64,000 nucleotides of DNA from Verrucomicrobiia bacterium (GTDB lineage Bacteria > Verrucomicrobiota > Verrucomicrobiia > Palsa-1439), in NCBI GenBank assembly GCA_035501175.1, contig DATJWQ010000046.1, positions 9,701-73,700 of the forward strand, in the 5' to 3' direction. Under the pieces are notes generated by a model. The model worked only from the letters and a program-made list of their open reading frames with translations, was not told the origin of the DNA and did no database searches. The position numbers and the translations under genes were made by a program. Positions 6,294 to 41,035 of the stretch are shown piece after piece. Position 1 is the first letter of the stretch. Every line of letters begins with the position of its first letter.

Positions 6294-6397
6294 GCAAGGC
6301 GCCAGTCTTTACGACCGCAGTTCGAGCGCTTGTTTCTCTCTACGCGTGTTGACGTCTCGCGGAGGCGATGGGTAGACTTGCCCGGCAAGCTCTCTGA

Positions 6398-7525: not shown

Positions 7526-8546
7526 CCGCAGGGCGAGAGCGAATGTCATCCCCGGCTGCCAACGCCCGTTGCACGGCTGACGCTACCTCGCTCACCGTGA
7601 TCGCCGAGAAAGATCGTCGCCAGTAGCTCTTGCGCGACTCCCAGTGTTTGCGGCGGATGGGCTTTGTTACGATGATCGCCCGGTCGGTCAGGGGACGCCA
7701 GCGCGTCGGGCCGTAGAGCGGCGTGGTGCGTCCGAAGATTACCACGACGGGACAGCCGACTGCCGCTGCCAAGTGGCTCGGACCGGTGTCCCGAGTGACC
7801 AGCACACGCGCGTGCTTCAATAGCCAAGCCAATTCCGCCAGGTCCGTTCGGCCGGTCAGATTGAGGTGGTGCGCCGGGGCATTGGCGGGGGAATCGGCTG
7901 CGTCCGCGCCCACGAACACGAGCTTCAGATGCAGTTCCTGGTCGATCCAATCGGCCAGATGCAGGAAGTTCTCGGCGGGCCAGCGGGCGATCAGGGAATG
8001 GGCCGATGGATTCACCACAGCAAACGGGGTTGAAGGGAGTGGCCACGGCAGTTTCGCGCCAAGCGAGGCGAGCGCCGATTCTGGAAGATGGACGCTGGGA
8101 ATGAAACGGTCTGGAGATGGCACCCCGATAAGAGCCAACAGATCGAAGTTGTACGCCGCTTCATGTTTCATGCCCCTGGCACGTCGATCGGGCAGTCCGT
8201 GCGTGAGATATCGGGTCAGGAAACGCTCATGGTAGCCGATACGAACGGGTATGTTCGCCTGGTACGCGCCACAGTAGCATTCCGCATCAGGGTGAAGATG
8301 AATGACAGCATCGAATGCCAACTTCGCAAGGCACGTTGGATCGGAGAGGAAGCCGTCGAGATCCGGATGGCCATCGAACAGCGGGCGCATCCGTTCCGCC
8401 GCGAAGAAATAGAGCGTAGCGCGCGGAAAGCGCTGGCGAATCGGGGCGATACAGGAGGTCGAAATGATCACGTCGCCGACGCGATCGGGACGGGCGACAA
8501 GCAATCGCGGGGCATCAGGCAGCGTTAATCTCGTGGAGCAGGGCAT
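7518..8546 (-). CDS. glycosyltransferase family 9 (ADP-heptose:LPS heptosyltransferase-like)
   Basis: N-terminal LLVARPDRVGDVIISTS and C-terminal VTRDTGPSHLAAAVGCPVVVIFG motifs are typical of GT9 WaaC/WaaF-type enzymes. Confidence 0.8.
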   Translation of the reverse strand: MPCSTRLTLPDAPRLLVARPDRVGDVIISTSCIAPIRQRFPRATLYFFAAERMRPLFDGHPDLDGFLSDPTCLAKLAFDAVIHLHPDAECYCGAYQANIPVRIGYHERFLTRYLTHGLPDRRARGMKHEAAYNFDLLALIGVPSPDRFIPSVHLPESALASLGAKLPWPLPSTPFAVVNPSAHSLIARWPAENFLHLADWIDQELHLKLVFVGADAADSPANAPAHHLNLTGRTDLAELAWLLKHARVLVTRDTGPSHLAAAVGCPVVVIFGRTTPLYGPTRWRPLTDRAIIVTKPIRRKHWESRKSYWRRSFSAITVSEVASAVQRALAAGDDIRSRPAVT

Positions 8547-9696
8547 TCGTGTAATCGTCCCAGGAACGGAAGCGTCGCTGCCGGGCTTCGGCGAAAAGCC
8601 GGTCGTAAAGGGCGCGGTCGGTGAGCAACTGCCGCATCCCGTCGGCGACCGCGTTGGTGTCAGCGCAGGTGACCGTCAGGCAACCGCCTCCTGCCGAGAC
8701 TTCGCCGAGCGCGCCGTTGGCGCCGCAGACGCAGGGGCGTCCATGCCACAAGCTTTCGAGAATGGGCAATCCGAATCCTTCGCGCACGGACGGATACACC
8801 GTGAATGAGCAGTCATGGTAGGCCTGATGAAGAGCCTGGTCGCTGATGTGGCGCAGCCATTTCAGCGGGCGTCCCTGGTCCACCAAACGGTTGGCCTCCG
8901 TGAGAACCGTCGCGCCCCAGTCCGCCGTCATCCGTCCGACGAGAACCAATTCGAAGTCGAGGCCGCCGGCCCAAAGGGTCTCGGCCGCTTCCAGCAATTT
9001 CAAATGATTCTTGCGCCGCTCCAGCGTGGCGACGCAGAGGATTCGTCGCGTGTCGAAACGGGGCAGGGCGTCCGGTCGGTCTTTTCCGAAATCGGTGGGC
9101 CAACCCAGCACGGCAGTCGGCATGCGCGAGACTCCCAGGGATGTCCAATAATGCTGCAGATCATTCTCCACCTCGCAGGAGACGCAAACGACCTTGTCGA
9201 ACGCTCCGAGAGCCCGAACATACTCGGCGAAATTGGGCTGATGATCCTGCGCGGTCAGATCGGGCAGACGCAGGGCGATGGCGTCGTGAAACACGGCGTA
9301 ACATCGCCCCGGGAAACGTCTTGCGGGAGCCGTAAACTGATGGATACGTTTGTCCCGAAAGATCTCCGGTACGAACAACACGTCGTCGGTTGTCGCGGCG
9401 ATTTCCAGAGCGAATTGTCGTTTTCGATTACGAAAGTGGCGGATGGTTTTCGACCACGGGAATCGAATGACGACCTGTTCCGGTTTGGCGCTCGGGGCGC
9501 GGTGGCGGGCAAAGGGTTTCACGAGAAAGCGATGTTCGCGCGAGGACAGACGGCAGTAGGAATTCAGTTTGTCATTCCAGAGAATCGGCACCACGGCTGT
9601 GCGGCGACTGAGCGCGGCAAAGAGACCGCGCACCATTCGTTGCACGCCGGTGTTCAATGGCGACTTACAGGAACTGGAGACATCCAGGTAGAGCAC
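8515..9696 (-). CDS. glycosyltransferase family 4
   Basis: GT4 C-terminal motif REGFGLPILESLWHGRPCVCG and an E(x7)E-like region. Overlaps the GT9 gene on the same strand. Confidence 0.75.
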   Translation of the reverse strand: MLYLDVSSSCKSPLNTGVQRMVRGLFAALSRRTAVVPILWNDKLNSYCRLSSREHRFLVKPFARHRAPSAKPEQVVIRFPWSKTIRHFRNRKRQFALEIAATTDDVLFVPEIFRDKRIHQFTAPARRFPGRCYAVFHDAIALRLPDLTAQDHQPNFAEYVRALGAFDKVVCVSCEVENDLQHYWTSLGVSRMPTAVLGWPTDFGKDRPDALPRFDTRRILCVATLERRKNHLKLLEAAETLWAGGLDFELVLVGRMTADWGATVLTEANRLVDQGRPLKWLRHISDQALHQAYHDCSFTVYPSVREGFGLPILESLWHGRPCVCGANGALGEVSAGGGCLTVTCADTNAVADGMRQLLTDRALYDRLFAEARQRRFRSWDDYTNALLHEINAA

Positions 9697-9871
9697 GATT
9701 GATTATAGTGGTGGGCGCAATCGCGTGGCAAGAGGGCCCTTGTTGCCCGGACGGGAGCCGCGCGGACGTTGAATTATCTTGTTCGACGGCAGAGCGTTTG
9801 GCAGTATCCCCGGGCGAAGCACGGAGGTTATCTGATTCATTGGCGCAGCCGGAGACTGTGATACACAGGAC
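9697..9871. promoter_or_regulatory. divergent intergenic region between the GT4/GT9 operon (minus) and the Wzt-led biosynthesis operon (plus); probable divergent promoters
   Basis: 175-bp non-coding gap between divergent gene starts at 9696 (minus) and 9872 (plus). No sigma-factor box could be identified by eye. Confidence 0.3.
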
Positions 9872-11362
9872 GTGAGTTCAGACATCGTTATCGACGTAGA
9901 GAACGTATCGAAGGCCTACGCGATCTGGACCTCGCCCGCGGCTCGGTTGCACGGGCCGCTGTTGGGTCGCGTCGGACAATTGCCGTTTCTCCCCGCGGGC
10001 ACCCGCAACCTCTGCAAGCGGCTTTCACGCGAATCGTTCCGAAATTTCTACGCGCTGAAGAACATCTCATTCCAGGTCCGCCGTGGGGAAAGCTTCGGCA
10101 TCATCGGTCGCAACGGCTCGGGCAAGAGCACGCTGCTGCAGATCATCGCCGGGACGCTGATGCCGACGGAAGGCGAAACCCGCCTGGGCGGCAAGGTGGC
10201 GGCGCTGCTGGAATTGGGCAGCGGATTCAACCCGGAATTCACCGGCCGCGAGAACGTGTACATGAACGCCACGGTGCTGGGATTGAGCAGGCACCAAATC
10301 GATCTGAAATTCGACGAAATCGCCGATTTTGCCGACATTGGCGAATTCATTGATCAGCCGGTCAAGACGTACAGCAGCGGCATGCTGATGCGGCTCGCAT
10401 TCGCCGTGACGACGCGGGTGGACGCGGAAGTTGTCGTGATCGACGAGGCTCTGGCCGTGGGGGACATGTTTTTTCGGCAAAAATGCTACCAACATTTGGA
10501 ATCGTTGCGAGCCAAAGGCGTGTCCATTGTGCTGGTCTCGCATGGCATGGCAGATGTGGAGCAGTTCTGCCAGCGGGCCGTGTTGCTGCATCACGGCGAA
10601 CTGGTGTTCCAAGGGAGCGGTTCGGAAGCAGTCAAACGATATTATCTCGTCGAACAGGAAGAATACGCCCAGTCAATTGCGGCCAGTACCCCTCTTCCCC
10701 GGAGCCCGACCGCCCGGACGGTGGCCAGCGACGACGAGATTGAGTGGCCCACACCTGAGGCATTCCTCAATCTGTCGCGCGTGTCACAGGTGTCTAATGG
10801 CTGTGCGCGCTGTACCGGCGTCGCCATCTGTGATGCCGAGGGCCGCCCGTGTGCGGCCTTCCAGCAGGGAGAAACCGCGACGTTCTATTGCGAATTTGAA
10901 TTGGAGCGGGATATCGACGCGCCTTTGGCCGGCGTTGAGATCATTAACGACAAGGGGATCATTGTGCACGGGCGGACAACTCTCGAATACGGCGTGCCTG
11001 TTCCCTGCGGGGTGTCCCGGGGCAGTCGTCTGCGGTTGAAACAGGATATCACTCTCGAACTGGCCCTGGGCGAGTATACCTTCACGGTAGGACTGGGGAT
11101 GCTGGCACAACGAGATTACGAGATGGCCGATCGCTTCCCGCATGTCGAATTGCACAGCAAGATCGTGCGGCTTTGTGTTGTTCCAAAGGTTGGACAATTC
11201 TGCATTATCTTTCGTCGCGCCGGGAAGCCCGTGCAGTTGTTGCATCATGGCCTTGCGAATCTCCCCGGTTCGGCCCATCTGGTGGCCCGCGAAGGATCAC
11301 GCGCGTCAGCTCCGATTGAAACAGCAGTGGTGTTGGAGACGCATGATCGGGCGCATGTGTGA
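9872..11362 (+). CDS. wzt: polysaccharide export ABC transporter ATP-binding protein (Wzt/TagH/KpsT family) with a roughly 230-aa C-terminal extension, possibly a glycan-terminus-binding domain
   Basis: GTG start with AGGA ribosome-binding site. Walker A GRNGSGKST, signature YSSGMLMRLAFA, Walker B VVVIDEAL. The extra C-terminal domain is the arrangement seen in Wzt proteins that recognise capped O-antigen termini. Confidence 0.85.
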   Translation: MSSDIVIDVENVSKAYAIWTSPAARLHGPLLGRVGQLPFLPAGTRNLCKRLSRESFRNFYALKNISFQVRRGESFGIIGRNGSGKSTLLQIIAGTLMPTEGETRLGGKVAALLELGSGFNPEFTGRENVYMNATVLGLSRHQIDLKFDEIADFADIGEFIDQPVKTYSSGMLMRLAFAVTTRVDAEVVVIDEALAVGDMFFRQKCYQHLESLRAKGVSIVLVSHGMADVEQFCQRAVLLHHGELVFQGSGSEAVKRYYLVEQEEYAQSIAASTPLPRSPTARTVASDDEIEWPTPEAFLNLSRVSQVSNGCARCTGVAICDAEGRPCAAFQQGETATFYCEFELERDIDAPLAGVEIINDKGIIVHGRTTLEYGVPVPCGVSRGSRLRLKQDITLELALGEYTFTVGLGMLAQRDYEMADRFPHVELHSKIVRLCVVPKVGQFCIIFRRAGKPVQLLHHGLANLPGSAHLVAREGSRASAPIETAVVLETHDRAHV

Positions 11363-11398
11363 TGGTGAGACGGCCCGCGAAAGGTGCGACACTACCCG

Positions 11399-14300
11399 AT
11401 GAAAACCGGTCACCACAAACAAACGGATGTCGGCGGGGGTTCGCAGGGAGGTTCCCCCGTTCGCCGCGTGTGTTGGTGCGGCAACCTCCATTTTCAGGAA
11501 TTTGGAGGTGAGTATGGCTTGTGCCCGCAGTGTCAGACCTTGGTTTCGCTGGCCGGCACCGCGCCAGAAACCCGGATCACCAACGAGCAGGATTTCTACG
11601 GTGAGCAGTATTGGTATAAGCATCAGGTGGCGGAGTTGGGGTTCCCGAATATCCAAACGCGGGCGCGTATGGATATGCCCGAGCGATGCCTGTACTGGAT
11701 CCGGGCATTGCTCAGGTACAAATTGCCACCCGGGAAGGCGCTGGAGATGGGCTGTGCTCACGGCGGGTTTGTGAGCCTGCTCCGCTGGGCAGGGTTTGAT
11801 GCCGCCGGCTTGGAGATCAGCCCGTCCATTGCGGATCTGGCACGCTCCATTTTTGATGTGCCCGTGCTGGTCGGCCCCGTGGAGGATCAGTCGCTCGGCC
11901 AGAATAGCCTGGACGTGGTTGTCCTGATGGATGTGTTGGAGCATTTGCCGGAGCCCTTGGCGACGATCCGCCAATGCGTCAAGCTCCTCAGACCGGACGG
12001 GGTATTGCTCATCCAGACGCCGGAGTATCCCGCGGGGAAGCAGTATCAGCAGTTGGTTTCGGAGAAAAGCCGCTTTCTGGAGCAACTGAAGCCTCGCGAG
12101 CATCTCTTCCTGTTCAGTCAGGATTCGATCAAGCAATTCCTGATGCAGGCCGGATTGCGGAATCTGTCCTTCGAGCCGGCGATCTTCGGGCACTACGACA
12201 TGTTTTTTGTCGCGAGCCGCGCGCCGTTGCCAGTGCGAACCCCGGACGACATCGCACAGCAATTGTGTTCACAGGCTCCCGGGCGGCTGGTCTTGGCGCT
12301 CCTGGATTTGGACGAGCGGTTCCGGAACATGACTGCACGTTACGTCGAATCCGAAGCCGATCGTGGCGCCAGGCTGAACAGCATGCATGCCCTGGAGGCT
12401 CTCCTGAGGGAGTCCGAGACCGACCGCGCGGCGAGGCTGAAGGTGATTGAAGGACAGGGCGGCGAAATCGCCGTGTTGAACGCCGAGTTGAGGAGCCAGC
12501 AACAGGCTCGGACCGAAGCCGTCCATCGCCTGGGCGCGTTGGAATCGGAACTGTCACAGGCGGCGGCGCGATGTGCCGAGTTGAACGCCGAATTGAGGAG
12601 CCAGCAACAGGCTCGGACGGAAGTCTTGAATCGCCTGGGCACGTTGGAATCGGAACTGTCGCAGGCGATGGCCCGATGCGTCGCACTGGAGGGTGAGCGG
12701 GCTGCCACAGCGAGAGTGATTGAGGGACAACGTGGCGAAATCACCGGATTGAATGCCGAATTGCAGCGCCGGCAGAATCGCATGGATGCATTGGAAGCGG
12801 AATTGTCCCAAACTCACCGGACTCTGGGCGAACTTCAGCAGCGCCACGACGAACTGGATACTTCCTGCCAGCGGTTGCAAAACGAGTCACGATATCGCCA
12901 GGGACAATGGCAAACCTTGCTGCCTGCGTTGGAGAGCTTCCGAAACAGCGAAGCGCTCCATCTCCTTCGCTGGTGGAGGCCCCTACGTGAGCTGAATCAA
13001 GCTGCGCAGGCCGTTGTTCCCGAGCCCGCGCGCATCGAACCCCGTCCCCGTCGCCCGCAAACGCTCAGCCGCGTTTGGGTCGACCTGGCGCCCCTGCAGC
13101 CGGGGGGCGAAAACGGCGGCGCCAAATGGCTTGCGCTCGAATTGGTCAGGGAACTGGCGAGGCTCACCCCGGATTGTCAGTGGATCTTGCTTGCGTCCGA
13201 CAAGGCTCTTCCGGAACTGGCCGGCTATGCGAGGGAGAATATAAGCTGCTCCCGCGCTGACGCACGGCCCCGGAGACGGGGCCGCAACGGCTCACCCAAA
13301 CAAGCCTGGCGCATGCTGGGGTCAAACCGGTCATCATTGCCCCGACCGGATCTGGTGTTCTGTCCGTTTACGACCGCACGTCTGTATACCGACGATGTGC
13401 CGCTGGTCGCCGTCGTGCATGATCTTCAATACCTGGTTTATCCGCAGTTCTTCAGCGAACACGAGAGATCCCACCGGGCGAGGGAATTCAGTGATGTGTG
13501 CCGTTTTGCCTCGCGGATCATTTGCGTTTCCGACGCCGTGCGGGAAGCTGTCGTGCGGGAGGGAATGATCCAACCACACCGGGTGAAGAGCGTTCACACG
13601 CGGCTCTTTCACCGTCTACCGTCGCCAGCGGCGACAGCCGTGGCGCGGACCTTGCATCGGCTCCACGTGGAACCGGGCCGGTATCTGCTCTATCCGGCGA
13701 ATTTCTGGGCTCACAAGAACCACGAGATGCTCCTGACGGCGTTTGGCATGTACCGGGCCCGGGCGCCGGGTTCCGAAGTAAAGTTGGCTTTCACTGGGGC
13801 TCCCGGTGATCGAAGCGAGGAATTGCGGAAGATCGCTCGCCGCATGGGTCTGCAATCTGTCGTGGAGTTTTTGGGATTCCTGCCGGGGGATGACTTCGCG
13901 GCGGTGCTCAGCGGTTGTCGAGCCGTGATCTTTCCGTCGCTGTTCGAGGGGTTTGGATTGCCGGTACTGGAGGCCATGGCGTTTGACAAGCCCGTCTTGT
14001 GCAGCAATGGAACCGCCTTATCCGAAGTCTCGGGTGAGGCAGCGTTGTTTTTCGATCCTCGAAAACCGAAGACCATTGTCGCCGCGCTGGAGAGGCTTGA
14101 GAATGACTCGTCCCTGGCGCCGAAGTTGGTCGCTCTCGGTCGCCGCCGGTTGGCGGAGCTGGGGGGCGCCGAGGTGATGGCCCGCGACTACCTGCGGATT
14201 TTCCAGGAAGCGTTGAAGGAAGATGACAATTGGGTCCCTGCGGCGCGCGGCATTTACGGGGACGGGTGGACCCAGGATCGTATAACCATCGTTTACGACA

Positions 14301-14617
14301 GCAGCAACGTCTCCCGCTACCTGGAGCTGGAGCTTCGTGCGCCGCCATGGTTGCCCTCGCCGGCGGTGTCCGTAACGATCACCGGCGGAAAAGACCGTCG
14401 TGACCACCAGACCCGGCAGATCCGACGCGGGCACTCGGTGGTGTTGCGTCGCGCCCTCCCCGAGGCGGGAGGAAGAGTCGAAATTCGGATCGATCCGTGT
14501 TTTCAACCCAGCGCTGTCAATCTGGGACCTGACACGCGCCTGCTGGGATGCTTTTGCGACCAGTGTCGGATCGTATCGGTTGACGGTAGCTCCGCGCTGT
14601 ATCAGAAGGACAGATGA
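11399..14617 (+). CDS. multidomain protein: N-terminal Zn-ribbon plus class I SAM methyltransferase, central coiled coil with tandem repeats, C-terminal GT4 glycosyltransferase (putative chain-terminator/ruler-polymerase fusion)
   Basis: CxxC...CxxC then methyltransferase motifs (LEMGCAHGGF; VVVLMDVLEHLPEP). Residues around 300-520 are a heptad-rich coiled coil with 35-aa repeats. C-terminal GT4 motif FPSLFEGFGLPVLEAMAFDKPVLCS. Stop overlaps the next gene start (ATGA). Confidence 0.8.
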   Translation: MKTGHHKQTDVGGGSQGGSPVRRVCWCGNLHFQEFGGEYGLCPQCQTLVSLAGTAPETRITNEQDFYGEQYWYKHQVAELGFPNIQTRARMDMPERCLYWIRALLRYKLPPGKALEMGCAHGGFVSLLRWAGFDAAGLEISPSIADLARSIFDVPVLVGPVEDQSLGQNSLDVVVLMDVLEHLPEPLATIRQCVKLLRPDGVLLIQTPEYPAGKQYQQLVSEKSRFLEQLKPREHLFLFSQDSIKQFLMQAGLRNLSFEPAIFGHYDMFFVASRAPLPVRTPDDIAQQLCSQAPGRLVLALLDLDERFRNMTARYVESEADRGARLNSMHALEALLRESETDRAARLKVIEGQGGEIAVLNAELRSQQQARTEAVHRLGALESELSQAAARCAELNAELRSQQQARTEVLNRLGTLESELSQAMARCVALEGERAATARVIEGQRGEITGLNAELQRRQNRMDALEAELSQTHRTLGELQQRHDELDTSCQRLQNESRYRQGQWQTLLPALESFRNSEALHLLRWWRPLRELNQAAQAVVPEPARIEPRPRRPQTLSRVWVDLAPLQPGGENGGAKWLALELVRELARLTPDCQWILLASDKALPELAGYARENISCSRADARPRRRGRNGSPKQAWRMLGSNRSSLPRPDLVFCPFTTARLYTDDVPLVAVVHDLQYLVYPQFFSEHERSHRAREFSDVCRFASRIICVSDAVREAVVREGMIQPHRVKSVHTRLFHRLPSPAATAVARTLHRLHVEPGRYLLYPANFWAHKNHEMLLTAFGMYRARAPGSEVKLAFTGAPGDRSEELRKIARRMGLQSVVEFLGFLPGDDFAAVLSGCRAVIFPSLFEGFGLPVLEAMAFDKPVLCSNGTALSEVSGEAALFFDPRKPKTIVAALERLENDSSLAPKLVALGRRRLAELGGAEVMARDYLRIFQEALKEDDNWVPAARGIYGDGWTQDRITIVYDSSNVSRYLELELRAPPWLPSPAVSVTITGGKDRRDHQTRQIRRGHSVVLRRALPEAGGRVEIRIDPCFQPSAVNLGPDTRLLGCFCDQCRIVSVDGSSALYQKDR
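12475..12685 (+). repeat. two tandem copies of a 105-bp (35-aa, five-heptad) repeat inside the coiled-coil segment, flanked by degenerate copies
   Basis: 12475-12579 and 12580-12684 are about 90% identical (gttgaacgccgaRttgaggagccagcaacaggctcggac...). More diverged copies lie around 12430 and 12740. Confidence 0.8.
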
Positions 14618-15507
14618 AGGTCCCCATTAGCATCATTACGCCCTCCTACAACCAGGGCCGGTACATTGAACGGACGATCCGCAGCGTGCTGGATCAGGGG
14701 ATCGCGGGCATGGAGTATCTCGTAATCGACGGGGGAAGCAACGACGAGACCGTTCCGATCCTGCGCGATTTTGGGGACAGAGTGTCCTGGGTCTCGGAAA
14801 GCGATGCGGGCCATTCCGATGCGATCAACAAGGGGATCCGTCGATCAACGGGGGCGATTATTGGCTGGCTGAACTCGGATGACGTGTATTACCCGGGAGC
14901 GCTCCAGAACGTGTTGGAGTATTTCGAAGAACACCCGGATGTCGAGGTGGTTTATGGCGATGCCAACCACATTGATGAGCACGATCAATTCATCGAGAAG
15001 TACCCGACGGAGACGTGGGATTGGAACCGGCTGATCGAGACGTGTTTCATCAGCCAGCCGGCAACGTTTCTGCGGCGGTCGGTGGTGGATCGCTGTGGCT
15101 TGCTCGACGTGACACTACGCCAGAGCATGGACTACGAATACTGGATCCGCCTGGGCAAGGCCGGCGTGCGGTTTGCCTATTTGCCGAGGCTGCTCGCCGC
15201 GACACGGCTGCATGATGAGTCGTTTACCGTTGGCTCGCGGGTGGCGTGCCATCGCGCGGTCAATGTGCTGATGCGCCGGCATTTCGGCCGGGTGCCGGAC
15301 CGATGGATTTTCAACTACGCGCATGCCGTCGTCGAAACCAAAGGAATTCAGCGGGATCATGCGTTGTCCTTTGCCATCGCCATTTCCGCGGTTTCCTGGT
15401 ACGCGGCGGTGCGCTGGAACCACGGGATCAATGGTGCCATCTGGAAGACCACCGGCTCGTGGTTGTGGGGAAACCTGCGGCGCAGTATGCACGGAAGGCC
15501 GGCATGA
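14614..15507 (+). CDS. glycosyltransferase family 2
   Basis: N-terminal ISIITPSYNQGRYIERTIRSVLDQ and YLVIDGGSNDET are classic GT2 motifs. Start overlaps the upstream stop. Confidence 0.8.
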   Translation: MKVPISIITPSYNQGRYIERTIRSVLDQGIAGMEYLVIDGGSNDETVPILRDFGDRVSWVSESDAGHSDAINKGIRRSTGAIIGWLNSDDVYYPGALQNVLEYFEEHPDVEVVYGDANHIDEHDQFIEKYPTETWDWNRLIETCFISQPATFLRRSVVDRCGLLDVTLRQSMDYEYWIRLGKAGVRFAYLPRLLAATRLHDESFTVGSRVACHRAVNVLMRRHFGRVPDRWIFNYAHAVVETKGIQRDHALSFAIAISAVSWYAAVRWNHGINGAIWKTTGSWLWGNLRRSMHGRPA

Positions 15508-16658
15508 GAATCGGATTCGATGTCAGTCAAACCGGTGCGGGCAGGTCGGGTTGCGGCTATTTTGCTGAGAGCATGATTCGTCATCTGGCAGAAATTGATG
15601 ACGGGAATGAGTATGTGCTCTACCCGACCTTCGGCAGCCATTGGTGGGATCCCGATTGGCAGTCGGGAATCGCCACCGTGGCGGGGCCGAACTTCCAGCG
15701 CTGGGAAGGGCACCAATCGCATCAGGAATCACGACGGTTCTGGGACGAGCCAACGGAGCAATTCGAGGCTCATCTTGGTGATCCGGATATCGTCCACGCC
15801 AATAACTTTTTCTGTCCCAAGGGCCTCCACGCAGCACGTCTGGTGTACACACTGCACGACCTGGCGTTTCTGGAATATCCCGAGTTCGCAACGGAAGCGA
15901 ATCGGCTGGCGTGTTTTGACGGGGTCCTCCGCGCGAGTCTGTTGGCGGATTTGATTGTTGCGGTCTCCGAGCATTCGCGCCACCACTTTTTGGAAACATT
16001 CCCGCATTATCCGCCCGAGAGAGCGATTGTCATGCATGAGGCCAGCCGGTTCGCGTCCCGACCGATTGCTCGCCCGGAGAAGCTGTCAATGCTCGCACCG
16101 GGAGAATTCTGGCTGAGCGTCGGCACGCTTGAGCCGCGCAAAAACCCTGTTCGATTGTTCCGCGCTTATGCCCGGCTCAAATCCAGCGCACCGCTGACAT
16201 GGCCGCTGGTTTGGGCTGGCGGTAACGGCTGGCTGATGGATGACCTCCCGCATCTGCTCAAAGAGGAGGGGCTGGAGCGTGACATCCTGTTGCTGGGGCG
16301 CGTCGATGACGAAAGCCTGCAGTGGCTCTACCAGAATTGCTTCGCCTTCGTCTTTCCTTCCGTCTTCGAAGGCTTCGGCCTGCCCGTCCTCGAAGCACTC
16401 AGCTTGGGCGCGCCGGTCATCGCCGCCAACACAACGTCGATTCCGGAAGTGGTCGGCGCGGCTGGGTTGTTGGTCGATCCGCTTTCCGAGGACGAGATCC
16501 TCGCGGCCATGATGAAACTCGATGGTGATAAGGCTCTGCGACAGGGTCTCAGCTCGGCAGGACCCCGTCAGGCCGAGCGGTTTTCCTGGACCCAATCTGC
16601 GCGGCAGCTCTTGCAGCAATACCAACGCACCTGTGAATCGGCTCCGTTCGCGAATTGA
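15504..16658 (+). CDS. glycosyltransferase family 4
   Basis: ATG at 15504 overlaps the upstream stop (ATGA). GT4 motif FPSVFEGFGLPVLEALSLGAPVIAANTTSIPEV. Confidence 0.8.
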   Translation: MRIGFDVSQTGAGRSGCGYFAESMIRHLAEIDDGNEYVLYPTFGSHWWDPDWQSGIATVAGPNFQRWEGHQSHQESRRFWDEPTEQFEAHLGDPDIVHANNFFCPKGLHAARLVYTLHDLAFLEYPEFATEANRLACFDGVLRASLLADLIVAVSEHSRHHFLETFPHYPPERAIVMHEASRFASRPIARPEKLSMLAPGEFWLSVGTLEPRKNPVRLFRAYARLKSSAPLTWPLVWAGGNGWLMDDLPHLLKEEGLERDILLLGRVDDESLQWLYQNCFAFVFPSVFEGFGLPVLEALSLGAPVIAANTTSIPEVVGAAGLLVDPLSEDEILAAMMKLDGDKALRQGLSSAGPRQAERFSWTQSARQLLQQYQRTCESAPFAN

Positions 16659-16788: not shown

Positions 16789-19155
16789 ATGAGTCGATAT
16801 TTGGAGTTAGGAGCGGAAGAAGGCAGGTCCTCTTGGTGGGCTGAATTCCTGACGTTCTCGCCCGTCTGGTTGGCTCTTGTGATTATGCTCCCGCGACTTC
16901 TCCAGCCGCACTTCGGTTTACTCGACGACGGGGTCACCCTCAGTGCCAGTCAAGGTGTCGGGGGTTGGACGCTGCCATTTCACATGTCCGGTGATACGGG
17001 CAGGTTCTGTCCTGTTTACTGGGCTTACTACCGCGCCATCTACAAGATCGTGGGTGCCAGACCGCTGCTTTTTTTTGGCGCCCAGTGCGTTCTCTTGGCC
17101 GCTACGGTCGCCGGGCTGATCCACTTTGGCCGACTGGTTGGCGCCAGCCGGTTCCAAGCCGGCACTGCGGGACTCTTCTTTGTGGTCTCCGGTCCTGTCA
17201 TCGAGAACTTCTATACCATCTCGAAGGCGGAGCCCATCCAGGTTTTGCTCCTCCTTTGTTCGCTTATTTTGGCGGAGTACTGTGCTCGGCAGGGCGCGCT
17301 TAAACGACAAATTGGATTTGTATTGGTAATTGCGGGCATGCTGCTGATGGCGAATGGGGCCAAGGAAACCAGTTTGGTGATGATCCCGATCAGCATGGCC
17401 CTGCTTGCAGTGACTCTGGTCCGAAAGCGCTGGCGGAGAGAAGGTCCCCCCGTTCGAGACAGCATCCTCTTCGTGTTTGCGACTCTTGTCGCCGGGATGG
17501 CATTCCTGCTTCTGCGCAAGCATTTTTCGACCTCTTCAATTGCCTCGGGCAGCTACACAAAAGCGTACTCTCTGGTCAATGTCCACGACTCGGCTTGGCG
17601 GCTACTGGCATGGTTGATTAGAGATTTCCCCCAACTGTTGCCATTGGGGGTTGTTGCGGGCCTGTCGTACAAACAGCGTAACCTATCCCAAAGCCGGCTA
17701 TTGTGGCTCTCGGTGATATGGATGCTGTTCTGGATGGGGATTTTTGCCCCTTGGCATTCTTGCTTGGAGTATTACCTGTTGCCCTTTGCGATGGGTTCCG
17801 CGCTCTTTTTCGGGCTGACCGTTGCCGAAGGCATCGACATGCTGTCTCAACCCGGCAAGGGGATTCCAAGGGTTGTCGCCGCCATATGCATGGTGGTCGC
17901 TGTCTGGCTGACCCAATTTACCGTCATAAATAATATTACCAATGCCAGGGTCCAGCTGAACGTTGACCGGGTGAATTCGAAGCTTGTGAGGTTTCTGGCT
18001 GGGTTGCCGGTGGACAGCCGTGTTCTTATCAATCTCTTGGAACCAAATGAATACACCTACGAGGTGGGAGTACACCTGCGGGATTTGAATCGCCGACCCG
18101 ATCTGCACGTTGATTACTTCCGGTTTCAGACCGCGACTCCGACTGAGCCAACAACGACCTATTATGTCGCGTCACCCCTGATGACCAATCAATTGCTCCC
18201 GTCGGTTCGCGTGGCCGTCGACGAATCAACAGCCAATGTGATGACCGAGTGCTTGGCTGGTTTTCTCGGCGAAACGGATCCGCTGGTTTATCATTCGCAA
18301 GCCGCCTTTCCATTATTGGATATTGGTTTCCAACGGATTCTATGTGGACTCGGTGTCGACGGCTTGGATTGCGGGGTGCCGAGAGCGTTTGTCGAAGGTC
18401 GGACTTTCCTTTACGGCTGGCAGGTGCATCGTGTGGTTCGGGAAATCTTGCATCAGGCGCGTCCCGGCAGATATTATGCAGGTGGAAGGTGGGAGCTAAG
18501 CGGCCCTGCCGCGGTGGTACAGAGGATTCAGTTTGGCAAGGACGCTGACCTGCCCGTTGTGGGAGACTGGAACGGGGATGGTTCAACCGGTATCGGCGTG
18601 TTCCGACCGTCTGACCTGACGTGGCGACTGGATTCTAACATGAACGGCACAACGGGGCTGGTGTTTCGGTTTGAGGGGATGAAAGCTGGCGACATTCCGA
18701 TTGTCGGAGATTGGGATGGCAACGGTACCGCCACCCCGGGGTATTTTCGTCCCGCAGACGCCAGCTGGCACCTGCGAAACAGTAATTCAACGGGCGCTGA
18801 AGACTGGCCGATTCTGCACTTCGGGATGCCAACGGATCTCCCCGTTGTTGGTGATTGGAATGGTGAGGGTCGCGATACCATTGGGATTTATCGACCGGAG
18901 AATGGCGAAGTGGACCTGAAGAATGACCTCAGTCCGGCACCGGCTCAAATCGTGTTCAGTGCACCGCGGAACGCGAAGCCAGTCGTGGGAAAGTGGTCTG
19001 GAGGCAGGGTCTGCACATTCGCTTTTGTTGTCGGGACCAATTGGAAATTGCGGCCGGTGAATTGTCAGGCCCCGGTTCTCAATCCGCCAGCCGATTTCGA
19101 GTTTGGCTCCACGGAAGGCCGTCCTGTGGCTGGGAACTGGAGGCCGGGACCGTGA
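16789..19155 (+). CDS. GT-C fold polytopic membrane glycosyltransferase-like protein with a C-terminal domain of FG-GAP-like repeats
   Basis: About 12 TM helices, with an acidic DD motif in the first extracytoplasmic loop (FGLLDDGV). The C-terminal 250 aa contain four VGDWNGDG...G.FRP repeats. Sits directly upstream of a GtrB-like gene. Confidence 0.6.
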   Translation: MSRYLELGAEEGRSSWWAEFLTFSPVWLALVIMLPRLLQPHFGLLDDGVTLSASQGVGGWTLPFHMSGDTGRFCPVYWAYYRAIYKIVGARPLLFFGAQCVLLAATVAGLIHFGRLVGASRFQAGTAGLFFVVSGPVIENFYTISKAEPIQVLLLLCSLILAEYCARQGALKRQIGFVLVIAGMLLMANGAKETSLVMIPISMALLAVTLVRKRWRREGPPVRDSILFVFATLVAGMAFLLLRKHFSTSSIASGSYTKAYSLVNVHDSAWRLLAWLIRDFPQLLPLGVVAGLSYKQRNLSQSRLLWLSVIWMLFWMGIFAPWHSCLEYYLLPFAMGSALFFGLTVAEGIDMLSQPGKGIPRVVAAICMVVAVWLTQFTVINNITNARVQLNVDRVNSKLVRFLAGLPVDSRVLINLLEPNEYTYEVGVHLRDLNRRPDLHVDYFRFQTATPTEPTTTYYVASPLMTNQLLPSVRVAVDESTANVMTECLAGFLGETDPLVYHSQAAFPLLDIGFQRILCGLGVDGLDCGVPRAFVEGRTFLYGWQVHRVVREILHQARPGRYYAGGRWELSGPAAVVQRIQFGKDADLPVVGDWNGDGSTGIGVFRPSDLTWRLDSNMNGTTGLVFRFEGMKAGDIPIVGDWDGNGTATPGYFRPADASWHLRNSNSTGAEDWPILHFGMPTDLPVVGDWNGEGRDTIGIYRPENGEVDLKNDLSPAPAQIVFSAPRNAKPVVGKWSGGRVCTFAFVVGTNWKLRPVNCQAPVLNPPADFEFGSTEGRPVAGNWRPGP

Positions 19156-19175
19156 GCGATGCCCGCGACAACAAA

Positions 19176-20192
19176 ATGCTTTCGATGGATATTATTGTGC
19201 CGCTGTTTAATGAGGAACTGGTCCTCACGGAATTCCACGGGCAATTGGTCCAGGCGGTTTCCAAACTACCGTGCGAGATCCGGATTCTATATGTCGATGA
19301 CGGCTCATCCGATGACACACCGGCTCTGTTGCAGAACCTGGCAAACAAGGATTCGCGCGTGGCGTTCATCAGGTTCAGCCGCAATTTTGGCCATCAGTCC
19401 GCGCTTACGGCCGGCTTGGATCACGCTGACGCCGATATTGTCATCATGATGGATGGCGACGGGCAGCATCCGCCGCAACTGATCCCGGAGATGGTCGACC
19501 AGTTCCGCGCTGGTTACGATGTGGTTCTGACTCAACGGAGCGACGAAGCCGGATTGTCATTCCTGAAGCGGAAGAATTCGCAGCTGTTTTACGGGCTCAT
19601 CAACCGCATTGGAAATACAAGGATCATTCCCGGCGCTGCCGACTTCCGCTTGCTGTCGCATCGCGCGGTAGACGCTCTCCGTCAGATGCCTGAGTATCAT
19701 CGATTCCTGCGCGGCATGGTGTCCTGGGTCGGGTTCCGAACAGCGATTCTGCCGTATACGGCTCCAGCCCGCCTCCATGGGAGCTCCAAGTATTCCCCTG
19801 GCAAGATGATGAGGCTGGCCATGGATGCCATCTTCTCGTTCTCGCTGGTGCCCCTTCAAATCGGCCTGGTTCTCGGTCTCTTGTTCTTCGTCCTGGCCGC
19901 ACTTGAAGTCATCTACGTCCTGAGCTTTTGGGTGCGGGGCAAACAAGCGTTGCTGGTGCCCGGCTGGAGCTCTTTGATGTTTGTTATACTTATCACCGGG
20001 GGGTTTCTCATGACGCTGGTCGGTCTGATCGGCAATTATGTGGGATATATTTTCCAGGAAGTGAAACATCGTCCTGTCTACGTGATTCAAACGGCGCACA
20101 TGGAGTCCCGGAGCGCACGGCCACTCCGTTCATTAGGCGAACTTCCTCGTTCACCAAAGACGTTGGAGACCCGGCCGGGCCCGCGACAATGA
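19176..20192 (+). CDS. polyprenyl-phosphate sugar synthase (GT2; GtrB/ArnC/dolichol-phosphate-mannose synthase-like) with C-terminal TM helices
   Basis: DIIVPLFNEE, YVDDGSSDDT and MDGDGQHPP motifs, plus two C-terminal TM helices, as in GtrB/ArnC. Confidence 0.8.
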   Translation: MLSMDIIVPLFNEELVLTEFHGQLVQAVSKLPCEIRILYVDDGSSDDTPALLQNLANKDSRVAFIRFSRNFGHQSALTAGLDHADADIVIMMDGDGQHPPQLIPEMVDQFRAGYDVVLTQRSDEAGLSFLKRKNSQLFYGLINRIGNTRIIPGAADFRLLSHRAVDALRQMPEYHRFLRGMVSWVGFRTAILPYTAPARLHGSSKYSPGKMMRLAMDAIFSFSLVPLQIGLVLGLLFFVLAALEVIYVLSFWVRGKQALLVPGWSSLMFVILITGGFLMTLVGLIGNYVGYIFQEVKHRPVYVIQTAHMESRSARPLRSLGELPRSPKTLETRPGPRQ

Positions 20193-21116: not shown

Positions 21117-22127
21117 ATGATACCCGAACCCAAGTGTTCCAATGAGGAGTTTGTCGAGTTTTGCTACCAGAGGGTGCTCCGTCGGGCCAGCGACCCGCAG
21201 GGACGTGAGGAAAAGATCGCGGCTCTGAATCGCGGACTGTCCCGACTCGATCTGCTGCTGCAGTTCTTGGACTGTCCCGAGTTTCTCTCCCGGGCATCCG
21301 AGTGGGTTCCGCCCGGCCACTTCTATTCGCCCATTCCCAACCTGCAGGACATTGCCGACCGGCTCAAGGATCTTCGGCTCGACGCTCAGGCATGCCCGAA
21401 TCTCGACATGCGGGACAACGAGCAAGTCCGCCTGCTCAATGCCCTTGCCGCCTATTACCCGGACCAGCCGTTTTCTGCAAAGCCATCAGCTCCGCTCCGG
21501 TATTATTTCGACAATGATTCCTTCCCATACGGCGACGCACTGGTTCTGTATGCGATGCTGCGGCACTTCAAACCCTCGCAAATCATTGAAATCGGCTCGG
21601 GGTATTCATCGGCAGTGATGCTGGACACCAACGACTTGTTTTTGGAGGGGAGCATCCGGCTCACGTTCATCGAACCCTACCCGCAACGGTTGTACGGCCT
21701 GTTGAGTGAAGACGACAAAGGGCACCACCGCGTTGTGGAACAGCCGGTTCAGAAAATGCCGGTGGCGGTGTTCCGTGAACTCAAGGCCGGAGATATCCTG
21801 TTTGTGGACTCCACCCATGTTGCCAAGTGCAACAGTGATGTGTTGTATGTTTTCTTCGAGATTATCCCCTCCCTGGCGGACGGTGTACTGATTCATTTTC
21901 ACGACATCTTCTGGCCGTTCGAATACCCCGCCAAATGGCTGCAGGAAGGCCGGGCGTGGAACGAGGCGTACTTCCTTCGAACGTTTCTGGAATACAATCA
22001 CAGATTCCAGGTTGTCTATGGCAGCAGCTACATGGCGCACTTTCATTCGGATCTTCTCCAGGAGAAAATGCCCCTGGTCATGCGCAACACTGGTGGGAGT
22101 TTCTGGTTGAAGAAGTTGCCCGCTTGA
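21117..22127 (+). CDS. DUF4214-like N-terminal domain fused to a TylF/CmcI-type class I methyltransferase (likely sugar O-methyltransferase)
   Basis: N-terminus EFVEFCYQRVLRRASDPQGREEKIAALNRG resembles DUF4214. IIEIGSGYSS and DILFVDSTHV resemble the Methyltransf_24 (macrocin O-methyltransferase) family. Confidence 0.6.
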   Translation: MIPEPKCSNEEFVEFCYQRVLRRASDPQGREEKIAALNRGLSRLDLLLQFLDCPEFLSRASEWVPPGHFYSPIPNLQDIADRLKDLRLDAQACPNLDMRDNEQVRLLNALAAYYPDQPFSAKPSAPLRYYFDNDSFPYGDALVLYAMLRHFKPSQIIEIGSGYSSAVMLDTNDLFLEGSIRLTFIEPYPQRLYGLLSEDDKGHHRVVEQPVQKMPVAVFRELKAGDILFVDSTHVAKCNSDVLYVFFEIIPSLADGVLIHFHDIFWPFEYPAKWLQEGRAWNEAYFLRTFLEYNHRFQVVYGSSYMAHFHSDLLQEKMPLVMRNTGGSFWLKKLPA

Positions 22128-22220
22128 CCGCCGTCGGCAAGCCGCTTTCGGCTTGCTTTCACCTTGTACCTCGGTAAACCATTCCGGTCACAGCGGTTTG
22201 GAGGAGGAACAAGGTCGGCC

Positions 22221-22787
22221 ATGCAAATGCGCAAGCAATCAACGGGGATTCGCGACTGCGAAGTGCTGATGCCCGAGGTGTTCGAAGATGCGCGAGGATT
22301 TTTCCTCGAGGTGTTTCGCGCGGATCAGTTCCGGGAATTCGGGCTGCCCGAACGATTTCAGCAATGGAATCATTCCCGCTCGTGCCAGAACGTCGTGCGC
22401 GGCCTGCATTTCCAGACCGATCCACCGATGGCCAAGATGATGCGTGTGACGCTTGGCGAGGCGTTTGTGGTCGCGGTGGATATCCGCAAGAACTCGCCAA
22501 CGCTGGGGCAGCATTTTGCGACCATTGCCTCGGCGGATAACAAGAAGATGGTTTACGCACCCCCGGGATTCGCCCGCGGGTTTGCCGTTCTCTCCGACTA
22601 TGCAGAGGTCCAATACCTGTGCACGAGCATTTACAACGTCAAGACGGAGTCGGGCATCCGCTGGAATGATCCGGCGCTGGCCATCCCGTGGCCCGTAACG
22701 AACCCGATCTTGTCGGGGAAGGATGAGAAGGCGCAGACGTTGGCGGAATGGTTGAAGCGCCCCGAATCGAATGCGTTCGTCTATTGA
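22221..22787 (+). CDS. dTDP-4-dehydrorhamnose 3,5-epimerase family protein (RmlC-like cupin)
   Basis: ATG preceded by GAGGAGGA ribosome-binding site. Motifs FFLEVFR, RGLHFQ and YAPPGFARGFAVLSD match the RmlC fold. Confidence 0.7.
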   Translation: MQMRKQSTGIRDCEVLMPEVFEDARGFFLEVFRADQFREFGLPERFQQWNHSRSCQNVVRGLHFQTDPPMAKMMRVTLGEAFVVAVDIRKNSPTLGQHFATIASADNKKMVYAPPGFARGFAVLSDYAEVQYLCTSIYNVKTESGIRWNDPALAIPWPVTNPILSGKDEKAQTLAEWLKRPESNAFVY

Positions 22788-22882
22788 GGAGATCAAGTGC
22801 GCTTGTGAATGTGTCCGAGCAAACACCGGTGTGGACAGTGAATCGCGCAACGGGCCAGCCAGTCTCTCTGGTCCGTCTGCTG

Positions 22883-23686
22883 ATGCCGTGGCAAATGGTC
22901 CATGATCTGCGCCGGCACAGCTCGTTGATCTGGCAATTCACCAAGCGCGACGTGCTGATGCGTTACCGCGGATCGTATCTGGGCATCTTGTGGTCGCTGT
23001 TGCGTCCGCTCTGTATGCTGGCGGTGTTCTTCGTCGTGTTCGGCTACATCTTTCAGTCGCGGTGGGGCCACGACCAGAACGAGACCCGCATCGACTACGC
23101 GCTGGGATTGTTCTGCGGTCTGATCGCCTTTGATTTCATGGCCGAATGCCTCGCCCGGGCGCCGACTCTCGTCCTGTCGAACCCGAACTACGTGACCCGG
23201 GTGGTGTTCCCGGTCGAGATTCTGCCCGTGTCCGCCGTCGGCGGGGCGCTGTTGCACATGGTGCTCAGTTCGATCCCGTTGTGTTTGGGATACCTCTTCG
23301 TGCACGGCTCGCTGCACCTGACGGCGCTGTATCTGCCGCTGATTTTCATTCCGTTGGCGCTTTTGGGGCTGGGACTGACATGGCTGTTTGCCAGCCTCGG
23401 GGTGTTCATTCGTGACATCAATTCATTCGTGCCCGTGCTGATCACGATTCTGATGTACGCCAGTGCGATCTTCTATCCGATCAGCCGGGTGCCCGCGGCA
23501 ATGCTGCCCGCGGTGATCCACAATCCGCTGGCCGTATTGGTGGAGAACACGCGCAACGTGTTTATGTGGGGGATGCCATTGAACTGGGGGCAGTACCTGT
23601 CCGCGACGCTGCTCTGCCTTGTCATCATGTTGTTCGGCTACGGGTTCTTTATGAAGACCAAGAACGCGTTCGCGGACGTGGTTTAG
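22883..23686 (+). CDS. wzm: ABC-2 type polysaccharide export permease (Wzm/KpsM/TagG family)
   Basis: N-terminal LIWQFTKRDVLMRYRGSYLGILWSLLRPL motif followed by six TM helices. The start could be an upstream GTG at 22805. Confidence 0.8.
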   Translation: MPWQMVHDLRRHSSLIWQFTKRDVLMRYRGSYLGILWSLLRPLCMLAVFFVVFGYIFQSRWGHDQNETRIDYALGLFCGLIAFDFMAECLARAPTLVLSNPNYVTRVVFPVEILPVSAVGGALLHMVLSSIPLCLGYLFVHGSLHLTALYLPLIFIPLALLGLGLTWLFASLGVFIRDINSFVPVLITILMYASAIFYPISRVPAAMLPAVIHNPLAVLVENTRNVFMWGMPLNWGQYLSATLLCLVIMLFGYGFFMKTKNAFADVV

Positions 23687-41033: not shown

Positions 41034-41035
41034 TT

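Follow-up and report, generated by a model that had tools for sequence, protein, structure and literature searches.

The window considered here, a 64,000-nucleotide stretch of a Verrucomicrobiae MAG, contains two genes on the + strand, A and B, which are separated by 20 nt and embedded in an ABC-transporter-type (Wzm/Wzt) surface-polysaccharide cluster recognizable from Pfam matches. The relevant genes are:

6398–7525: a further GT-C-like gene
9872–11362, +: Wzt ABC ATPase with a C-terminal Wzt_C carbohydrate-binding domain (PF00005, 9.5e-21; PF14524, 3.8e-13)
11384–14617, +: 1077-aa methyltransferase/coiled-coil/GT4 fusion, a WbdD/WbbB-like terminator/polymerase candidate (Pfam)
14614–15507, +: GT2 glycosyltransferase, upstream of gene A (Pfam)
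about 15504–16658, +: GT4 glycosyltransferase, directly upstream of gene A (Pfam)
16789–19155, +: gene A, 788-aa ORF with its ATG at 16789
19176–20192, +: gene B, 338-aa GtrB/ArnC-type polyprenyl-phosphate glycosyltransferase with a GT2 domain and two C-terminal TM helices
20189–21043 and 21117–22127, +: two methyltransferases downstream of gene B (Pfam)
22164–22787, +: RmlC dTDP-4-dehydrorhamnose epimerase (PF00908, 1e-58)
22748–23686, +: Wzm ABC-2 permease (PF01061, 5.6e-19)
30409–30855, −: small DMT-superfamily membrane protein, DMT_6/DUF486 (PF04342, 5.4e-44)

The cluster encodes a complete set for cytoplasmic polymerization and ABC export. Its genes are tightly packed: the ATG of the GT4 gene at 15504 overlaps the stop of the GT2 gene, and the junction sequence ATGA joins the stop of B to the start of the first methyltransferase, which suggests translational coupling. 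LPS-core-type genes (GT9 heptosyltransferase) are found 8 kb upstream.

The GT2 domain of B (PF00535, 2.2e-30) is followed by TM cores at aa 231–249 and 267–285. The protein aligns practically end to end with the Synechocystis GtrB structure (PDB 5EKP; 9.5e-67, aa 3–305) and with ArnC in the PDB (1e-35, aa 4–307), scoring 229 bits against the former versus 127 bits against the latter. Its DGD at aa 93–95 aligns with the DAD of GtrB and its ADFRL at aa 155 with the GDFRL of that enzyme, the catalytic Asp being kept. Judged by these alignments, B is a bona fide full-length GtrB/ArnC-type synthase, as had been proposed in an earlier, sequence-only reading of the locus. Its best NCBIfam match is PgfS (3e-83), with ArnC at 2e-41; both fall below the equivalog cut-offs (279 vs 500 bits and 142 vs 529 bits, respectively), and these matches therefore do not assign a donor sugar.

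The product of gene A is identical to the NCBI MAG protein VMP11_09520 (P0001) and matches nothing in Pfam or NCBIfam, even at E ≤ 10, so that a GT-C assignment is not derivable from sequence families. A profile of its family (alignment A1) likewise found no sequence match in the PDB, and a weak QueF match (E 0.096) was dismissed as noise. It falls outside every annotated GT-C sequence family (PMT, PMT_2, STT3, YfhO, Arabinose_trans and others); membership of the ArnT/PMT_2 family in particular was rejected, with no match to Pfam PMT_2 and hhalign probabilities of 25% and 0.6% for the family profile against two PMT_2 proteins from locus L005. The affinities of the protein emerge at the level of its AlphaFold (AF2) model (pLDDT 83, pTM 0.78): the best 21 Foldseek matches in the PDB are all GT-C glycosyltransferases (E 1e-6 to 5e-4, probability 1.00), among them AglB (1e-6), STT3, ArnT (5f15; 2.8e-6), PglB, DPY19 and Pmt4. 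EmbB, AftA and AftD are recovered further down (2e-3 to 3e-3), and no WaaL- or Wzy-type structures appear among the matches. Together with a conserved acidic motif after TM1, this predicted structure confirms at the fold level the earlier call of a GT-C membrane enzyme, and no non-glycosyltransferase family intrudes among the best 21 matches.

The following regions can be delineated in A:

16789–17931, +: membrane domain, aa 1–381, with 11 predicted TM helices and a helical first outer loop (hydropathy, AF2 helices)
16924–16929, +: Asp46-Asp47 of the motif FGLLDDG, immediately behind TM1, acidic residues that are candidates for catalysis
17932–18444, +: predicted periplasmic alpha/beta domain, aa 382–552, found family-wide (alignment A1)
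18445–19152, +: predicted five-bladed beta-propeller, aa 553–788, with five PVVGDW-type repeats

The acidic pair D46/D47 is kept in all 23 homologs with an intact N-terminus, and solved GT-C enzymes have their catalytic Asp at the corresponding position (PMC11127046). The alpha/beta domain displays the invariant residues Q389, D393, N396, N415, Y422, R436, D438 and R474, and a Cys519/Cys528 pair retained in 22–23 of 25 sequences; the model of the extramembrane part (aa 385–788) has a pLDDT of 87.6. The hydropathy profile is best read with the N-terminus in the cytoplasm and K/R-rich even-numbered loops, such as aa 212–223 (6 K/R), even if the bias is only about two-fold (7 K/R in 41 residues on the presumed cytoplasmic loops vs 9 in 106 on the short outer ones). 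With this orientation all conserved polar residues (D46/D47, E139, K146, K192, D279, W322, Q389, D393 and N396) come to lie on the predicted periplasmic side. Taken with the fold homology and the Cys pair, hydropathy and charge bias suggest that the repeat domain, too, resides outside the cytoplasm, where the original reading required it to be. The outer-face polar residues and the GtrB-like neighbors described below point to a putative lipid-phosphate-linked sugar donor used by A at the extracytoplasmic face.

The PVVGDW-type repeats start at nt 18553, 18697, 18841, 18979 and 19123, corresponding to five PxxG[DKN]W motifs at aa 589, 637, 685, 731 and 779, with a spacing of 48, 48, 46 and 48 aa; not one of 20,000 shuffles yielded two or more matches to the motif. 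The first three read FG..PVVGDWNGDG, ..PIVGDWDGNG and FG..PVVGDWNGEG, and the last two are degenerate. The FG...GDWNGDG signature is typical of FG-GAP/VCBS repeats. The label 'FG-GAP-like' derives from this motif and from the weak matches of three homologs to FG-GAP_3 (best E 0.0013); a single homolog matches FG-GAP at 0.021, and the window protein itself matches FG-GAP_3 only weakly, at E 0.99. In the predicted structure, the domain comprises 20 strands arranged in five blades, the last of which is apparently closed by the N-terminal strands, and its nearest structural neighbors are glycan-binding propeller lectins. Accordingly, the repeats announced by the sequence-only reading are real, spanning about 236 rather than 250 aa, whereas their comparison to integrin blades fails: an integrin-type FG-GAP propeller with seven blades and repeats of about 60 aa is not borne out by the five predicted blades and the 46–48-aa spacing. 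The model instead favors a tachylectin-like propeller. The sequence identity to the propeller lectins Tachylectin-2 and UmbA4 is only 6–13%; those lectins are secreted, whereas the propeller of A is fused to a membrane enzyme and its repeats carry the FG...GDWNGDG signature. The idea of an uncommon fusion that might serve as a glycan-binding platform gains from these lectin-like neighbors, but such a fusion is no longer unprecedented, given the GT136 enzyme ORF12 (PMC11127046).

An exhaustive profile search at E ≤ 1e-30 recovered 420 clusters (50% identity) of A homologs, a larger family than implied by a word-indexed search, whose 26 matches understate its size. The family is found mainly in Chloroflexota, which contribute most members, Methylomirabilota, Verrucomicrobiota and Acidobacteriota, and is marked by the signatures FGLLDDG, GPVIENxYTLSKxE, KET and RDF in addition to the conserved periplasmic alpha/beta domain. 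In 28 of 74 loci (about 57 of them with usable flanks), a GtrB-like gene with 48–76% identity to B occurs no more than 400 bp from the GT-C gene, and in 24 of these 28 it is directly downstream on the same strand. The paired loci are spread over Chloroflexota, Methylomirabilota, Acidobacteriota and Verrucomicrobiota, and the pairing is kept far beyond chance across phyla. It is not universal, as about half of the family lacks a GtrB-like gene within 8 kb; nor is the family specific to O antigens, since most members are from Chloroflexota and sit outside polysaccharide clusters, so that O antigens are not its general acceptor. In L001, for instance, the pair is isolated among unrelated genes. 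By comparison, members bearing a lectin module, either a propeller or discoidin domains, share polysaccharide genes with the window, which the short forms do not, and homologs of the 1077-aa fusion adjoin lectin-bearing GT-C genes in L007 and L009 to L014.

A scan of all ORFs for small multi-TM proteins, combined with Pfam, detected no GtrA-type gene (PF04138) in the window, in agreement with the initial reading, and no small multi-TM ORF near the A/B pair. The only small flippase-like ORF in the window is the DMT_6/DUF486 protein, 10 kb from the pair; a flippase role for it would be speculative, with nothing tying it to A and B. Clustering of ORFs likewise revealed no conserved flippase in 61 related loci, one of which (L010) holds a 112-aa TMEM234/EamA-like gene; tblastn searches of the related loci with this protein and with DMT_6 found no conserved neighbor near the pair.

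We propose, with somewhat better than even confidence, that A and B constitute a two-gene cassette for extracytoplasmic glycosylation via a lipid-linked sugar, with the exported polysaccharide as the likeliest acceptor and the propeller acting as a lectin. Facing the cytoplasm, B would charge undecaprenyl phosphate with a single sugar taken from a nucleotide sugar, as its fold and active-site motifs indicate; the lipid-linked sugar would reach the periplasmic face through a flippase presumably encoded away from the pair, and A would then move the sugar onto the acceptor on that side. Here, the likeliest acceptor is the polysaccharide specified by the surrounding GT2, GT4 and methyltransferase genes, a methylated polymer containing rhamnose and exported by Wzm/Wzt; it would be modified once exported, before ligation or at about that stage, with the C-terminal propeller potentially keeping the enzyme on the polymer. 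The periplasmic glycan modification module originally suggested for this locus is upheld by the synthase and GT-C combination, the conserved pairing, the Wzm/Wzt setting and the lectin-like propeller, its location resting on the predicted topology. The further GT-C-like gene at 6398–7525 could be a co-user of the product of B, which is a point against this proposal.

A direct precedent by description, rather than by sequence, is the GT136 enzyme ORF12 of Citrobacter youngae O1 (Kelly et al. 2024), an 11-TM GT-C protein whose C-terminal CBM binds the O antigen in its unmodified form (PMC11127046). ORF12 and A share the GT-C fold and the number of TM helices; in both, TM1 is followed by a helical insert on the periplasmic side and the C-terminus forms a beta-rich module, and both are linked to an ABC-exported O polysaccharide and an undecaprenyl-phosphate monosaccharide donor (proposed in the case of A). 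The binding modules differ, being Ig-like in ORF12 and a predicted five-bladed propeller in A, as do the flippases (a MATE protein in the ORF12 cluster, none adjoining A/B) and the donor synthases, namely a PRPP-dependent PPPRS in the former and the GtrB-type GT2 enzyme B in the latter; given this last difference, the two systems are at most analogous. In the GtrA/GtrB/GtrC systems of Shigella and Salmonella and in gmlABC of Klebsiella, too, a GtrB-type synthase of Und-P-hexose works with a GT-C enzyme, and side-chain sugars are added singly in the periplasm; gmlABC acts on an ABC-dependent O antigen, as in the cluster setting seen here. Unlike these, the A/B pair has no adjacent GtrA (PF04138) or MATE gene, and A, at 788 aa, is much larger, belongs to no annotated family and features an alpha/beta periplasmic domain and a lectin-like propeller; gmlBC of Klebsiella do function without the flippase gene gmlA (PMC12797948). 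The ArnC/ArnT system shares the succession of a GT2 synthase and a GT-C enzyme, and it differs in its synthase, in the ArnA/B/D/E/F genes, none of which were found here, and in lacking the extra periplasmic domains of A. Mycobacterial EmbC/AftD, Gram-positive GacI/GacL and CsbB/YfhO-type GT-C enzymes also use polyprenyl-phosphate sugars outside the cytoplasm, as proposed for A, and Emb and AftD hold on to their polymeric acceptor by means of carbohydrate-binding modules, although these enzymes represent other sequence families, module folds and envelope types.

Protein glycosylation offers a different acceptor, in that the pair might glycosylate periplasmic or surface proteins, with the propeller binding these substrates. 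PMT/Ppm1 in actinobacteria and, in Streptococcus mutans, PgfS and its GT-C partners are such systems, and PgfS is the best NCBIfam match of B (3e-83, below the 500-bit cut-off), oligosaccharyltransferases and Pmt4 are among the top fold matches of A, and most family members are Chloroflexota proteins outside polysaccharide clusters, with the L001 pair forming an isolated cassette. At this locus, however, the pair lies between the GT4 gene and the methyltransferase, RmlC and Wzm genes with coupled junctions, members with propeller or discoidin modules track polysaccharide genes, and the nearest structures of the propeller are carbohydrate lectins, all of which make this alternative unlikely.

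We regard modification of lipid A, the core or another envelope glycolipid in the style of ArnC/ArnT as improbable: B does match ArnC over its full length (NCBIfam 2e-41, PDB 1e-35), ArnT (5f15, 2.8e-6) ranks with the best matches in the fold search with A, and LPS-core-type GT9 heptosyltransferase genes occur 8 kb upstream, but B is much closer to GtrB (229 vs 127 bits), the scanned cluster genes include no ArnA/B/D-type genes, the family is mostly from Chloroflexota, and one would not expect a lectin propeller if lipid A were the acceptor. Equally improbable is a processive role for A in building or extending a glycan outside the cytoplasm, as in Emb/Aft enzymes, or a ligase-like one, instead of side-chain transfer. 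In its favor, EmbB, AftA and AftD, which also carry carbohydrate-binding modules (PMC11127046), are found among the fold matches (2e-3 to 3e-3), but STT3, ArnT and PglB match better; moreover, the cluster already has its complete cytoplasmic polymerization and ABC export set, and WaaL- and Wzy-type structures are absent from the fold matches. That A and B are neighbors by accident and serve unrelated pathways is very improbable, for even if about half of the family has no neighboring GtrB-like gene, the two are within 400 bp in 28 loci from four phyla, 24 of which share their order and strand, and are only 20 nt apart here.

Returning to the preferred reading of a cassette for lipid-linked, extracytoplasmic glycosylation, the mechanism itself would be of a familiar type, the novelty being an unannotated GT-C family with a predicted five-bladed lectin-like propeller. 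We give about even chances to the broader view in which A is the first protein to be examined from a large, wholly unannotated GT-C family. On this view the family forms a flippase-less cassette together with a GtrB-type partner that is strongly conserved, and a sub-lineage has taken up interchangeable lectin modules, be it a five-bladed propeller or discoidin domains in tandem, in the specific setting of an ABC-exported polysaccharide acceptor. Exchange between propeller and discoidin modules goes along with a polysaccharide-cluster setting, offering comparative support for the recruitment of lectin modules by GT-C enzymes to hold polymeric acceptors, which has so far been tested only for GT136 ORF12 and EmbC/AftD.

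As the family is invisible to Pfam and NCBIfam, its members, which are common in Chloroflexota and Methylomirabilota MAGs, are labeled 'hypothetical' by automated annotation. Decoration in the periplasm makes surface polysaccharides antigenically diverse, and nearly all known examples of it are, to our knowledge, from Proteobacteria, Firmicutes and Actinobacteria; the same synthase/GT-C logic appears at the A/B locus in Verrucomicrobiota. Thus, the locus extends a known mechanism, rather than revealing a new one, and supplies a signature for finding more cases. If characterized, the family would found a new GT family in CAZy, and it would provide a sequence marker by which glycan decoration after export can be recognized in uncultured phyla.

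The membrane protein of gene A and the GtrB-like synthase of gene B are encoded side by side in a polysaccharide cluster, of which the following features are relevant here:

9872–11362, + strand: Wzt with a Wzt_C binding domain
11384–14617, + strand: fusion of a methyltransferase, a coiled coil and a GT4 domain, 1077 aa
16789 (ATG)–19155 (stop), + strand: gene A, ORF of 788 aa
19176–20192, + strand: gene B, ORF of 338 aa, starting 20 nt after gene A
22748–23686, + strand: Wzm

The gene order is Wzt, the 1077-aa fusion, GT2, GT4, gene A, gene B, two methyltransferases, RmlC and Wzm, a gene set that is that of an ABC-transporter-dependent, terminally modified, rhamnose-containing polymer. The stop codon of gene B shares the sequence ATGA (20189–20192) with the start codon of the following gene, which makes co-transcription and partial translational coupling of the genes probable. 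An NCBI protein of a Verrucomicrobiae MAG, annotated only as hypothetical, has exactly the sequence encoded by gene A. Wzt and Wzm of the one ABC exporter are not adjacent; ~11 kb encoding glycosyltransferases and methyltransferases lie between them. The 1077-aa protein (methyltransferase at aa 97–262, GT4 at aa 578–917, a C-terminal ~150 aa without assignment) includes a long coiled coil in which aa ~366–473 form an internal near-duplicate; the whole is reminiscent of a WbdD/WbbB-type chain terminator, molecular ruler and polymerase joined in one chain.

Gene A shows no match to Pfam or NCBIfam even at E<=10, nor does its family profile match any PDB sequence; the GT-C call of the sequence-only reading was therefore tested by structure. 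The AlphaFold model (pLDDT 83, pTM 0.78) bears it out: the best 21 Foldseek matches in the PDB are exclusively GT-C glycosyltransferases, featuring AglB (1.0e-6), yeast and human STT3, ArnT (2.8e-6), PglB, DPY19 and Pmt4, with EmbB, AftA, AftD, ALG3 and PimE ranked lower. Model and hydropathy concur on 11 TM helices, the first two of which are separated by a helical insert. Directly after TM1 lies an FGLLDDG motif, whose D46 and D47 are kept in 23/23 homologs with an intact N-terminus; this is the position of the catalytic Asp in solved GT-C enzymes (PMC11127046). In an alignment of 25 homologs, P136, E139, T143, K146, K192, D279, W311, W315, P321 and W322 of the membrane part are also invariant, and E139, K146, K192, D279 and W322 are predicted to line the same membrane face as D46/D47. 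Membership of the PMT_2 sequence family was considered and rejected, as hhalign gave a probability of only 25% against a PMT_2 protein. Fold matches in the absence of sequence-family matches thus place gene A, on its predicted structure, in the GT-C fold yet outside every annotated GT-C sequence family.

Given 11 TM helices and an N-terminus inside, the even-numbered loops of gene A would be cytoplasmic; one of these is RKRWRREGPPVR (aa 212–223), with six K/R. Overall, K/R account for 7/41 residues of the loops placed inside versus 9/106 in the short outer loops. The TM1–TM2 loop and the domains following TM11 would accordingly lie outside the cytoplasm, a placement also indicated by fold homology. 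In the soluble part after TM11, a Cys519/Cys528 pair kept in 22–23 of the 25 sequences suggests a disulfide. This part begins with an alpha/beta domain (aa 382–552) present in every family member, with invariant Q389, D393, N396, N415, Y422, R436, D438 and R474. It is followed at aa 553–788 by five PxxG[DKN]W repeats (aa 589, 637, 685, 731 and 779; spacing 46–48 aa), whereas none of 20,000 shuffles had even two such motifs. A separate model of aa 385–788 (pLDDT 87.6) displays 20 strands beyond the alpha/beta domain, i.e., five blades of four strands each, with N-terminal strands apparently completing the short fifth repeat. Foldseek recovers propellers generally for the repeat domain, including the GlcNAc lectins AAL2 (4.8e-4) and PVL, as well as Bap1 and integrin alphaV. 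The initial description of these repeats as FG-GAP-like stands for the motif (Pfam FG-GAP_3 reaches 0.0013 in a homolog and a non-significant E of 0.99 in gene A itself); the fold, as modeled, is a five-bladed propeller resembling lectins.

Gene B contains a GT2 domain (PF00535, 2.2e-30) and aligns with the full length of the NCBIfam models PgfS (3.1e-83) and ArnC (2.1e-41), in each case scoring under the equivalog cut-off. Its closest solved structures are Synechocystis GtrB (5EKP; 9.5e-67, aa 3–305) and then ArnC (1e-35), and its alignment retains the DxD motif (DGD, 93–95), the Asp of ADFRL (aa 155) and two C-terminal TM helices. These family, structure and motif matches therefore confirm the earlier assignment to GtrB/ArnC-type synthases.

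A word-indexed search yielded 26 gene A relatives. An exhaustive profile search gave 997 cluster representatives at E<=1e-10, 420 of them at E<=1e-30; among 170 proteins retrieved, about 26 share the repeats of gene A and measure 735–820 aa. Scanning species-representative genomes, we found 74 gene A-family loci, all in MAGs, mostly of Anaerolineae (Chloroflexota) and Methylomirabilota, with a few of Verrucomicrobiae and Bryobacteraceae; ~57 of these are flanked by at least 1.2 kb on both sides. The A and B genes are linked across phyla: a GtrB-like gene lies <400 bp from the GT-C gene in 28/74 loci, immediately downstream on the same strand in 24, upstream on the same strand in two and divergent in two. 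In the other half, no gene of this type occurs within 8 kb. At L001 the genes flanking the pair are unrelated, and it therefore behaves as a self-contained cassette. The GtrB-like partners are 48–76% identical to gene B, well above the 28–44% of non-Verrucomicrobiae GT-C partners. Beyond the close Verrucomicrobiae relatives (L011–L084), the synthases are mostly at 48–61% and the GT-C proteins at 28–44%, which suggests that the donor sugar of the cassette stays constant and its acceptor side diverges. In a Chloroflexota-type arrangement (L003 1–9665; also L004 and L039), the GtrB-like gene overlaps the GT-C gene start and the pair is preceded by a formyltransferase (Formyl_trans_N), a second GT2, a Wzy_C-like protein and a GT4-family phosphotransferase, which may point to a formylated amino sugar as donor, similar to the Arn pathway.

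The C-terminal module is present on the GT-C member at 12 loci (the window, L007 to L016 and L074). Nine of these (the window, L007, L009 to L014 and L074), representing ~6 independent lineages, also contain homologs of the WbdD-like fusion of the window, its GT2 and GT4 genes and/or Wzm/Wzt, while none of ~60 loci with short forms, which lack the module, has a WbdD-like or Wzm homolog. At L007 and L009 to L014, lectin-bearing GT-C genes occur together with homologs of the 1077-aa fusion. The L007 cluster is syntenic with the window (three upstream genes 48–62% identical), and its GT-C terminus features two discoidin (F5/8 type C) domains in place of the propeller. That such lectin-type modules are interchangeable in one genomic context argues for binding of the polymer by the module.

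No recurrent third gene or flippase adjoins the pair in the related loci. Only L010, among the loci examined, has a plausible linked flippase, a 112-aa TMEM234/EamA-like membrane protein between synthase and GT-C; the order there (5656–13096) is GtrB-like gene, TMEM234/EamA-like protein, methyltransferase, propeller-bearing GT-C and a 963-aa protein with a weak sulfatase-superfamily match. The sole small flippase-like ORF of the window is a 148-aa DMT-superfamily protein (30409–30855, −; DUF486/DMT_6, 5.4e-44), located 10 kb from the pair among unrelated neighbors, and no homolog of it was found near the pair in other loci.

Upstream of the polysaccharide cluster are a GT9 heptosyltransferase and a PIG-V-like second polytopic membrane transferase (6398–7525, +; Pfam Mannosyl_trans2/PIG-V, 1.2e-13; 8 TM); the latter, neighbored by the GT9 and a GT4 gene (7518–8546, −, and 8515–9696, −), could be a further user of a polyprenyl-phosphate sugar, e.g., the gene B product. 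A 736-aa protein (34286–36496, +) combines ~8 N-terminal TM helices without a Pfam match with at least nine TPR repeats, an architecture recalling TMTC/PMT-TPR-type GT-C enzymes, and may be another unannotated membrane glycosyltransferase. Beyond it, ORFs at 36774–37844 (−), 38257–39621 (+) and 40342–41478 (−), of 356, 454 and 378 aa, have no Pfam match at E<=0.01, and GC falls to 0.557, below the surroundings, at ~38–40 kb.

We consider it highly likely that the pair constitutes an extracytoplasmic glycosylation cassette using a lipid-linked sugar. In the specific form that we favor with moderate confidence, gene B, with its GtrB fold and active-site motifs, would make Und-P-sugar, an unlinked or promiscuous flippase would carry it across the membrane (Klebsiella gmlBC work without gmlA; PMC12797948), and gene A would transfer the sugar in the periplasm onto the exported polymer, to which the propeller would tether it, as the CBM of the GT136 enzyme ORF12 binds unmodified O antigen (PMC11127046). 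Glycosylation of proteins would fit the PgfS-like best match of gene B and the many family members outside polysaccharide clusters, but the window context and the lectin neighbors of the propeller speak against it, and we regard it as unlikely. Modification of lipid A or core and processive polymerization outside the cytoplasm each appear improbable, and incidental adjacency of A and B very improbable indeed.

As a decorator of exported polymer, the pair would work like the Gtr and gmlABC systems, its likeness to GT136 ORF12 lying in architecture; unlike the classical three-component system, defined by a linked flippase, it is without one. Such systems, and GT-C enzymes bearing carbohydrate-binding modules, are already known. 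What is new here is an unannotated GT-C family with its own motifs and predicted periplasmic domain, its propeller module and its phyletic setting.
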